Assembly: GCF_057098645.1 (NCBI RefSeq)
Contig: NZ_CM169472.1
DNA: 64,000 nucleotides
Reading direction: 5' to 3' (one strand)
The notes under the pieces were generated by a model that made no database searches, was not told where the DNA came from, and saw only the letters and a program-made list of their open reading frames with translations. The translations under genes were made by a program, and so were the position numbers. This document shows, piece after piece, positions 52,833 to 52,902 of this stretch (position 1 is the stretch's first letter; the number at the start of each line of letters is the position of its first letter).

Positions 52833-52902
52833 TTGTACCGATAAGGTACAAGTATCTTGAAGGTTCATCTTAATCATGTAATATGTATACCGGAGGTACA
52901 TA
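52833..52902. promoter_or_regulatory. cI/cro intergenic operators (OR) and pR/pRM region
   Basis: Perfect palindrome ttgtacc-gataa-ggtacaa (52833..52851) and related gtatacc-gga-ggtaca (about 52885..52901) between divergent cI and cro. Confidence 0.5.

Follow-up and report, generated by a model that had tools for sequence, protein, structure and literature searches.

Predicted lambda-style operators and likely integrase arm sites of a prfC-inserted prophage very probably share a TGTAC motif by coincidence

The genetic switch of phage lambda is built of divergent cI and cro genes, a tripartite O_R lying over PR and PRM, and further operators at pL. This arrangement is shared by a prophage inserted in prfC within the 64,000-nucleotide stretch of contig NZ_CM169472.1 (assembly GCF_057098645.1) analyzed here, the whole of which is called the window below. 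The cI–cro operator/promoter region of the prophage occupies nt 52833–52902. Three predicted O_R dyads and two O_L dyads overlap the putative PR and PRM and a strong pL match, which is the layout of a lambda-type switch. The five sites, three between cI and cro and two at pL, yield a 7-5-7 dyad consensus, ATGTACC-N5-GGTACAT. The TGTAC of these dyads also recurs upstream of the integrase gene int, and an earlier note on this DNA suggested that int and a cargo operon might be wired into repressor control through it. With a probability of roughly 0.85, we favor instead that two unrelated protein-binding motifs share TGTAC by coincidence, one forming lambda-style switch operators and the other integrase arm sites.

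The closest described immunity regions are those of the E. coli K-12 element e14 and of phage SfV, the YmfK–YmfT type, to which the repressor, Cro and intergenic region of the window are nearly identical. The 1.8-kb immunity region exhibits 97–98.6% nucleotide identity to cdtI, Ayreon, 2H10, SfV and fifteen Shiga toxin 2c (Stx2c) phages. Essentially the same module is found in e14, SfV, SfIV, cdtI, Ayreon, 2H10 and the Stx2c phages, with the five dyads at equivalent places; relative to e14 there are few base changes, mostly in operator spacers. The module is coupled here to an integrase targeting prfC and to a cargo with dCTP deaminase, like phages of the cdtI/Stx2c type and unlike e14 and SfV. 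A segment of 141 bp around nt 52833–52902 is found in 1312 of 5426 complete E. coli genomes. In the SfV GenBank record, the equivalent 69 bp (26377–26445) are labeled "putative operator region". The operators are thus predicted to be ordinary lambda-style prophage repressor sites in a type of region already annotated in SfV. The additions of the present analysis are the number and register of the sites, their consensus, the conservation across genera, the geometric link to the repressor Rep of phage SPC32H, and the reading of the TGTACA repeats as probable integrase sites. Our literature search, which did not reach the SfV (2002) and e14 (2004) genome papers, returned no experimental mapping of individual operators of YmfK, SfV cI or cdtI.

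The differences from lambda are as clear as the shared layout. The operators are unrelated, being 19-bp 7-5-7 dyads here and 17-bp sites of the TATCACCGC type in lambda, and the N-terminal domain of the repressor has no detectable sequence similarity to that of lambda CI. The O_R sites are spaced by 33 and 17 bp, compared with 24 and 23 bp in lambda, and only two O_L sites were found, 20 bp apart. A YdaS-type Cro and a CP76-type CII take the place of lambda Cro and CII; the gene order after cro is the CP76-type CII-like gene followed by an Ash-family gene. Neither N nor cIII has been reported in SfV-like phages (PMC3851460). Prophage CP-933P (Sp12), with PaaR2, YdaS and YdaT, shares the YdaS-type Cro and the YdaT/CP76-like CII analogue. 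There, the footprints of repressor and Cro overlap both promoters, and an extra operator lies at PL (PMC8630535). PaaR2 differs from the present repressor in having no S24 domain, and it has four operators at equal spacing, 18-bp palindromes whose consensus is GTTTAGTAA.

The repressor gene (nt 52142–52816, minus strand) encodes 224 residues and is the ortholog of ymfK in the K-12 e14 element, with 222 of the 224 residues identical. In the protein, a helix-turn-helix (HTH) domain at the N terminus is followed by an S24 self-cleaving domain at the C terminus. Residues 93–212 match Pfam Peptidase_S24 (PF00717, E=1.5e-26), and phmmer matches the C-terminal domain to structures of the lambda CI C-terminal domain (E about 2e-9), as well as to UmuD and LexA. 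Candidate cleavage and catalytic residues in the translation are Ala100-Gly101 (VQAGAW), Ser138 (GDSM) and Lys176 (TFKRL), the TFK segment aligning with TFKKL of lambda. The S24 domain, the Ser-Lys dyad and the Ala-Gly site are thus features held in common with lambda CI, and a leaderless cI message (see below) is probably another.

The N-terminal domain gave no Pfam HTH match, even at E<=10. An AlphaFold 2 (AF2) model nevertheless predicts a four-helix bundle with a mean confidence score (pLDDT) of 94.4. Its top match in the PDB is SPC32H Rep (5D50), with a TM score of 0.85, a root-mean-square deviation of 1.9 A and 36% identity; the DNA-binding domains of the 434, P22 and lambda repressors match more weakly. 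Judged by this model, the fold is the HTH type of a lambda-type (LexA/S24) CI switch. The homology to Rep, the closest solved structure, is limited to residues 1–76. The C-terminal half of the present repressor is not of the Rep type but an S24 domain, and the C-terminal part of Rep gave no S24 match. Rep is a tetramer, acts in a 'trans' tetramer mode, and is inactivated by an antirepressor, not by self-cleavage.

A scan of the SPC32H genome located ATTACC-N5-GGTAAT dyads at the rep-proximal promoters, including two abutting 17-mers that resemble O_R2/O_R3 of the window. These dyads share the ACC-N5-GGT inner core and the geometry with the window operators, and differ in the outer bases (ATTACC versus TGTACC). 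The Cro-type gene (nt 52907–53107, plus strand) encodes a YdaS-like HTH protein of 66 residues, all 66 identical to YmfT of K-12 e14. Its Pfam matches, to YdaS and HTH_3, are weak, and Cro homologs are found in all six lineages compared.

The strongest site is the cI-proximal O_R3 at nt 52833–52851, TTGTACC-GATAA-GGTACAA (TTGTACCGATAAGGTACAA), a perfect 7-5-7 dyad of 22.0 bits. It is the TTGTACC/GGTACAA palindrome that the earlier note had placed between the divergent cI and cro. O_R3 occupies the equivalent position in five other lineages, and all variation within the clade is limited to its 5-bp spacer. The weak middle site O_R2 at nt 52850–52868, AAGTATC-TTGAA-GGTTCAT (AAGTATCTTGAAGGTTCAT), scores 13.9 bits with the independent matrix described below (12–14 over the scans). 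Its centre, 17 bp from that of the abutting O_R3, carries the PR -35 TTGAAG. Both the enterobacterial and the Pseudomonas lineages keep its half-site ATGwACC in the PR spacer; in the Vibrio phage the half-site is degenerate. The cro-proximal O_R1 at nt 52883–52901, ATGTATA-CCGGA-GGTACAT (ATGTATACCGGAGGTACAT), scores 17.1 bits, overlaps the -10/+1 of PR, and includes the cro Shine-Dalgarno sequence GGAGG (52892–52896). A dyad with CCTCC/GGAGG is kept at this position in all lineages, and e14 has ATGTACA here, nearer to the consensus. A cro-proximal site had been predicted before and is present, but its register, gtatacc-gga-ggtaca, was wrong, the lineage alignment giving the 7-5-7 form above.

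At pL, the element written earlier as gtatccc-aa-gggtacat is O_L1 at nt 52079–52097, ATGTATC-CCAAG-GGTACAT (ATGTATCCCAAGGGTACAT). It fills the pL spacer and scores 18.2 bits with the independent matrix (18–20 over the scans). Equivalents lie downstream of cI in the Hafnia and Edwardsiella phages, e14, SfV and cdtI. The weaker O_L2 at nt 52059–52077, GTGTTTC-TTTTA-GATACAT (GTGTTTCTTTTAGATACAT), lies over the -10/+1 of pL, 20 bp from O_L1, and scores 13.6 bits with the same matrix (11–14 over the scans). Its counterpart in e14 and SfV reaches 16 bits, and the 20-bp pairing also occurs in the Hafnia and Edwardsiella phages. O_R2 and O_L2 are the two sites that had been overlooked.

The promoter pL (nt 52076–52103, minus strand) fits the sigma-70 pattern at 11 of 12 positions, better than any other sequence of the region, with -35 TTGACA (52098–52103), a 16-nt spacer and -10 CATAAT (52076–52081). 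Right upstream of it, after cI, a terminator scan identified an intrinsic terminator (nt 52113–52130, minus strand; hairpin -10.3 kcal/mol), and a post-cI terminator is annotated in the SfV and Ayreon records. The other two promoters and their start sites are putative, read from the sequence. PR (nt 52857–52884, plus strand) would comprise -35 TTGAAG (52857–52862), a 16-nt spacer and -10 TAATAT (52879–52884). A PR-like layout of TTGnnG, a 16–17-nt spacer and a -10-like hexamer recurs in the Hafnia, Edwardsiella (CATAAT) and Vibrio phages.

PRM (nt 52823–52851, minus strand) would have -35 TTGTAC (52846–52851), a 17-nt spacer and -10 TTTAAT (52823–52828), with the start at the cI ATG (52816). 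Given this start, O_R3 would span -35 to -17, covering the -35 and spacer of PRM, and O_R2 would be centred at -43. Lambda O_R2 is centred at about -42 of PRM. In five of the six lineages, an nnnAAT hexamer precedes the cI ATG by 6–7 nt and a well-placed Shine-Dalgarno sequence is lacking; the Vibrio phage has TTTAAC 8 nt upstream. The -10-like hexamer 6 nt before the ATG, together with the lack of a Shine-Dalgarno sequence, implies a leaderless cI mRNA. A leaderless PRM mRNA was shown for PaaR2 of CP-933P by 5′ RACE (PMC8630535).

Simple searches do not set the operators apart. The dyad pattern with <=3 mismatches has 3 matches in the window against 1.99 expected, which is not significant, and TGTACA occurs 9 times against 11 expected, showing no overall enrichment. 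As these counts are uninformative, a matrix trained on other lineages was used instead. The half-site matrix was built from 14 strong sites of non-E. coli lineages only (Hafnia, Edwardsiella, Vibrio and Pseudomonas phages) and scanned as a dyad with a 5-bp spacer. Five sites of >=12 bits were found in the window, all in the immunity region, whereas 40 dinucleotide shuffles had 0.43 such sites on average and 3 at most. The best score per shuffle averaged 11.8 bits (standard deviation 1.7, maximum 16.7), and the three top sites exceed that of any shuffle. The earlier note had proposed a motif scan of the whole prophage; the matrix scan over the window yields the five immunity-region dyads.

The next matches below the five operators lie at nt 49466 (11.8 bits) and 10490 (11.4 bits). 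The match at 49466, inside an early-left gene, was attributed to chance, for shuffled sequence reaches such scores and the SfV homolog has no counterpart. In the complete genomes of cdtI and SfV, and in the e14 locus, the same five sites appear and none other of comparable score. Scans with a 4- or 6-bp spacer added no site in the immunity region, the 6-bp scan recovering only pairs in the attachment-site (att) arms. A further dyad, ATTTCCCCACAGGGTACAG, lies inside the cI coding sequence at nt 52435–52453; it scores about 12 bits in SfV (25978) and e14 (7052) and less in the window, and probably reflects chance or coding constraint.

The positions of the sites are repeated in distant phages. 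By tblastn with the N-terminal 93 residues, homologous DNA-binding domains were identified in five other phages, with identities over the matched segment of 71% for Hafnia yong2, 61% for Edwardsiella EPP-1, 55% for Vibrio p42, 58% for Pseudomonas CF67a and 54% for Pseudomonas LESphi3. Across these lineages repressor residues 1–71 display 54–75% identity to the window protein, and IDR..TQ.SR is invariant. The repressor–cro region of all five phages harbors the cro-proximal and cI-proximal dyads in unchanged order, and four of them also show a clear middle site. The cro-proximal site reads ATGTACC-TCCnn-GGTACAw, with the cro Shine-Dalgarno sequence inside it. The middle site is the weaker ATGwACC-nnCAA-GGnwCT, degenerate in the Vibrio phage, whose centre forms the TTGnnG -35 on the opposite strand. 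The cI-proximal site, yTGTACn-N5-GGTACAr, abuts it. In the Hafnia and Edwardsiella phages, two sites 20 bp apart lie right downstream of the repressor gene and resemble the pL pair of the window.

Natural variation was followed in 78 loci of IMG/VR whose repressors are identical in the N-terminal domain; these loci hold 23 variants of the 93-bp intergenic region. A scan of IMG/VR with an alignment of the N-terminal domain gave E. coli-type loci only among the 80 kept, and no new lineages. Over the 78 loci, variation touches 3 of the 40 positions in half-sites, 8 of the 15 in spacers and 7 of the other 38. One of the half-site variants turns ATGTATA into ATGTACA, toward the consensus, as in e14. 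The cross-lineage footprint, the independent matrix and this variation support the view that a cI-like repressor recognizes TGTAC-type half-sites at cI–cro and pL, as the earlier note had suggested.

The second set of TGTAC motifs accompanies the integrase. The int gene (nt 44853–46091, plus strand) encodes a tyrosine integrase of 412 residues with the Pfam domains Phage_integrase, Arm-DNA-bind_3 and Phage_int_M, residues 3–90 matching Arm-DNA-bind_3 (PF13356, E=2e-16). The att core ATTATTTCTCACCC at nt 44609–44622 marks the left junction of the prophage, which lies within the 5′ end of prfC, and corresponds to the 14-bp duplication annotated in records of Stx2c and Stx1a phages. The window and cdtI have a single copy each (26974 in cdtI), and the core contains no TGTACA. 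The prfC ATG is at nt 44558, and the first 22 codons alone remain at attL. The P arm of cdtI (26926–26987) encodes a substitute start, which would restore full-length prfC at attR.

Four TGTACA copies, at nt 44787, 44799, 44808 and 44838, lie upstream of int where they had been reported, as does the single copy at 48089 near the cargo. The four have the extended consensus TTGTACAT and make up nt 44786–44845, the predicted integrase arm-type sites of the P′ arm of attL. They stand 178–229 bp inside the phage from the core and overlap the region where the int promoter must lie. Four copies within about 60 bp have a window-corrected Poisson probability near 2.5e-7. As relatives of the integrase in IMG/VR and the phage collection were only >=95% or <=46% identical, the intact attP of cdtI was used for comparison. 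It carries four further copies 74–183 bp on the other side of the core, giving four per arm, and each arm has one pair of TTGTACAT repeats spaced by 12 bp. In the 47-kb cdtI genome 8 of the 13 copies lie <=240 bp from the core (Poisson probability about 1e-15), and shuffles of the local 480 bp of the cdtI attP contain 0.16 TGTACA on average and 4 at most.

The repeats follow the integrase. Stx1a phages with the same int keep all four copies beside an H-19B-type repressor, which has an N-terminal domain 41% identical and an intergenic region built on TTATC/GATAA motifs. Conversely, in SfV and e14, where the same repressor is joined to other integrases, no operator-like dyad lies near int, and TGTACA does not cluster in the e14 locus. 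The repeats are therefore assigned to the integration module. The location on both arms of the cdtI attP and the arm-binding domain of the integrase make arm-type sites at the attachment site the most likely identity of the repeats, an alternative that the earlier note had itself raised. The P and P′ arms of lambda and those of P4-type integrases likewise carry a short motif on both attP arms, tens to hundreds of bp from the core and unlike it. The predicted arm motif TTGTACAT and its distances from the core are specific to the prfC-targeting integrase.

Could the repressor regulon nonetheless extend through TGTACA half-sites to int and the cargo operon with its dCTP deaminase? The arm-site consensus TTGTACAT does resemble the operator half-site (A/T)TGTACC, CTGTACATGTGCTTGTACAT at nt 44786 attains 15.2 bits if the spacer is 6 bp instead of 5 bp, and the repeats are located where the int promoter must be. 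However, the 5-bp spacer is found at the operators of every lineage, and with it the best dyads reach 3.6 bits near int and 5.4 bits near the cargo, compared with 11–22 bits for the operators. Both values are at background level, and control of int and the cargo by the repressor is thus not supported. The comparisons just described point the same way, since SfV and e14 share the repressor yet lack such sites near int, the Stx1a phages retain the repeats with a repressor of different specificity, and the repeats also stand on the far attP arm, distant from any int promoter. The cargo of cdtI, moreover, is not that of this prophage, and the total TGTACA count is under expectation. A regulon of this extent is therefore hardly to be expected, and the lone TGTACA at 48089 is attributed to chance.

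Even on the operators themselves other explanations deserve weighing. Cro alone might bind the palindromes, or a further protein might, for instance the CP76-type CII, while the S24 repressor recognizes something else. The strongest site of the window is O_R3 beside cI, where Cro binds first in lambda, and Cro homologs accompany the sites in all lineages. Yet the approximately 90-bp intergenic region holds no other repeated element, the sites follow the conservation of the repressor recognition region across lineages, and SPC32H Rep, the structurally closest repressor, has dyads of the same geometry at its own promoters. The pL sites just downstream of cI are also classic repressor targets, which leaves binding by Cro alone improbable. 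Less credible still is that the O_R3 palindrome (52833–52851) acts as an RNA hairpin or intrinsic terminator. A minus-strand scan does flag it, a 7-bp stem followed by AGGTTTTAAT, with a predicted hairpin of -8.2 kcal/mol, but such a terminator would stop transcripts right before cI and defeat establishment transcription. The T-run is not kept in the Hafnia, Edwardsiella and Pseudomonas phages while the half-sites are, and the four sister sites have none; variation is confined to the loop-equivalent spacer, with no compensatory stem changes needed. An equally slim chance is given to a compositional artefact of GTAC palindromes in AT-rich intergenic DNA, for which the 3 matches against 1.99 expected in the simple mismatch search would speak; the independent matrix, the cross-lineage positions, the pattern of variation and the overlap with promoters weigh against it. 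Restriction or methylation sites (GGTACC, GTAC) were rejected, as the sites lie on promoter elements and the half-sites are conserved alongside the repressor recognition region.

Several points weigh against the reading of switch operators plus integrase arm sites. The 17-bp distance between O_R2 and O_R3 does not fit side-by-side cooperativity of the lambda type. The predicted PR scores under the threshold of the promoter scan, and the scores of O_R2 and O_L2 fall in the range of the best shuffled matches, so that these two sites rest on position and conservation and not on score alone. Integrase relatives with the TGTACA repeats are all >=95% identical, which makes the conservation of the repeats weak evidence, and the case rests on their distribution over the two arms. 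With a 6-bp spacer, one pair per arm scores 15–16 bits as a pseudo-dyad, and the 15.2 bits of the window pair make weak cross-binding of the repressor at the arms conceivable. The searchable literature, finally, gave no binding experiment on this repressor, Cro or integrase.

The abutment of O_R2 and O_R3, 16–17 bp centre to centre, is common to the E. coli, Hafnia, Edwardsiella and Pseudomonas phages and SPC32H (52833–52868 in the window, 1451–1483 in L010/L011, 34388–34423 in SPC32H). A binding mode other than the side-by-side dimer cooperativity of lambda is an unlikely but not negligible explanation of this pair. The pair could be the footprint of a single tetramer, or two mutually exclusive sites that make activation and repression of PRM alternative states. 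In a weaker variant, the repressor may also contact the 20-bp TTGTACAT pseudo-dyads in the att arms, and if it does, immunity would be coupled to excision.

The favored reading, lambda-style operators and separate integrase arm sites, suggests the following mechanism, in which repressor binding, promoter starts, cooperativity and the order of site filling are inferred. Dimers of the YmfK-type cI, and presumably the YmfT-type Cro, would bind the 19-bp 7-5-7 dyads ATGTACC-N5-GGTACAT. Occupancy of O_R1/O_R2 and O_L1/O_L2 would switch off the early rightward and leftward operons, and that of O_R3 would provide autoregulation of cI. Self-cleavage triggered by the SOS response, probably at Ala100-Gly101 by Ser138/Lys176, would relieve the repression. 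The TGTACA repeats would serve integration, excision and possibly the autoregulation of int, and not immunity.

Roughly one in four complete E. coli genomes has the immunity module. K-12 is among them, and there YmfK and YmfT still have the status of putative regulators. Phages under the control of this module include carriers of Shiga toxin 2c, cytolethal distending toxin and Shigella serotype-conversion genes. From an explicit model of the operators one could predict which co-resident prophages share immunity and cross-repress, and the SOS-linked 'YmfT iModulon' would become easier to interpret. The five sites, their ATGTACC-N5-GGTACAT consensus and the fixed spacer of 5 bp would also allow binding experiments to be designed cleanly. 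Once the integrase repeats are set apart from the operators, a false regulatory link to int and the defence cargo disappears.

Phage Ayreon (MF807953) has this immunity type, with a cI 99% identical, and its host is listed as E. coli K-12. K-12 carrying e14 should be immune, and the propagation host of Ayreon is presumably without e14.

Other phages exhibit a related operator geometry. H-19B-type phages (Stx1a LC727891, 13890–14000) have operators of the TTTATC-N5-GGTAAA type in 6-5-6 geometry, and the ATTACC-N5-GGTAAT operators of SPC32H (33520–33740 and 34380–34460) have the same 6-5-6 geometry. This hints at a family-wide ACC/ATC-N5-GGT/GAT core, with the outer triplet setting the specificity.

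The cargo sits between int and the early-left genes, where cdtI has a different gene. Its protein of 535 residues (nt 46244–47851, minus strand) contains a cytidine/dCMP-deaminase domain and matches the PADLOC dCTPase (dCTP deaminase) anti-phage defence model (E=1.9e-164). An open reading frame (ORF) of 61 residues lies nearby at nt 47862–48047 on the same strand.

On the P-arm side of the cdtI attP, upstream of orf30 (about 26718–26768), LexA-box-like CTGT-N8-ACAG sequences TACTGTGTTTGTATACAGTA and AACTGTATGAATAAACAGTG are found. They suggest an SOS-controlled gene beside the attachment site.

The window is taken to be a piece of E. coli chromosome. Outside the prophage, three tandem tRNA-Leu(CAG) genes (nt 41190–41512) and ORFs of 137, 148 and 225 residues (nt 42947–44467) lie upstream of prfC. 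We take the neighborhood of nt 41190–44467 to be the E. coli leuQPV and holD-rimI-yjjG-prfC regions.

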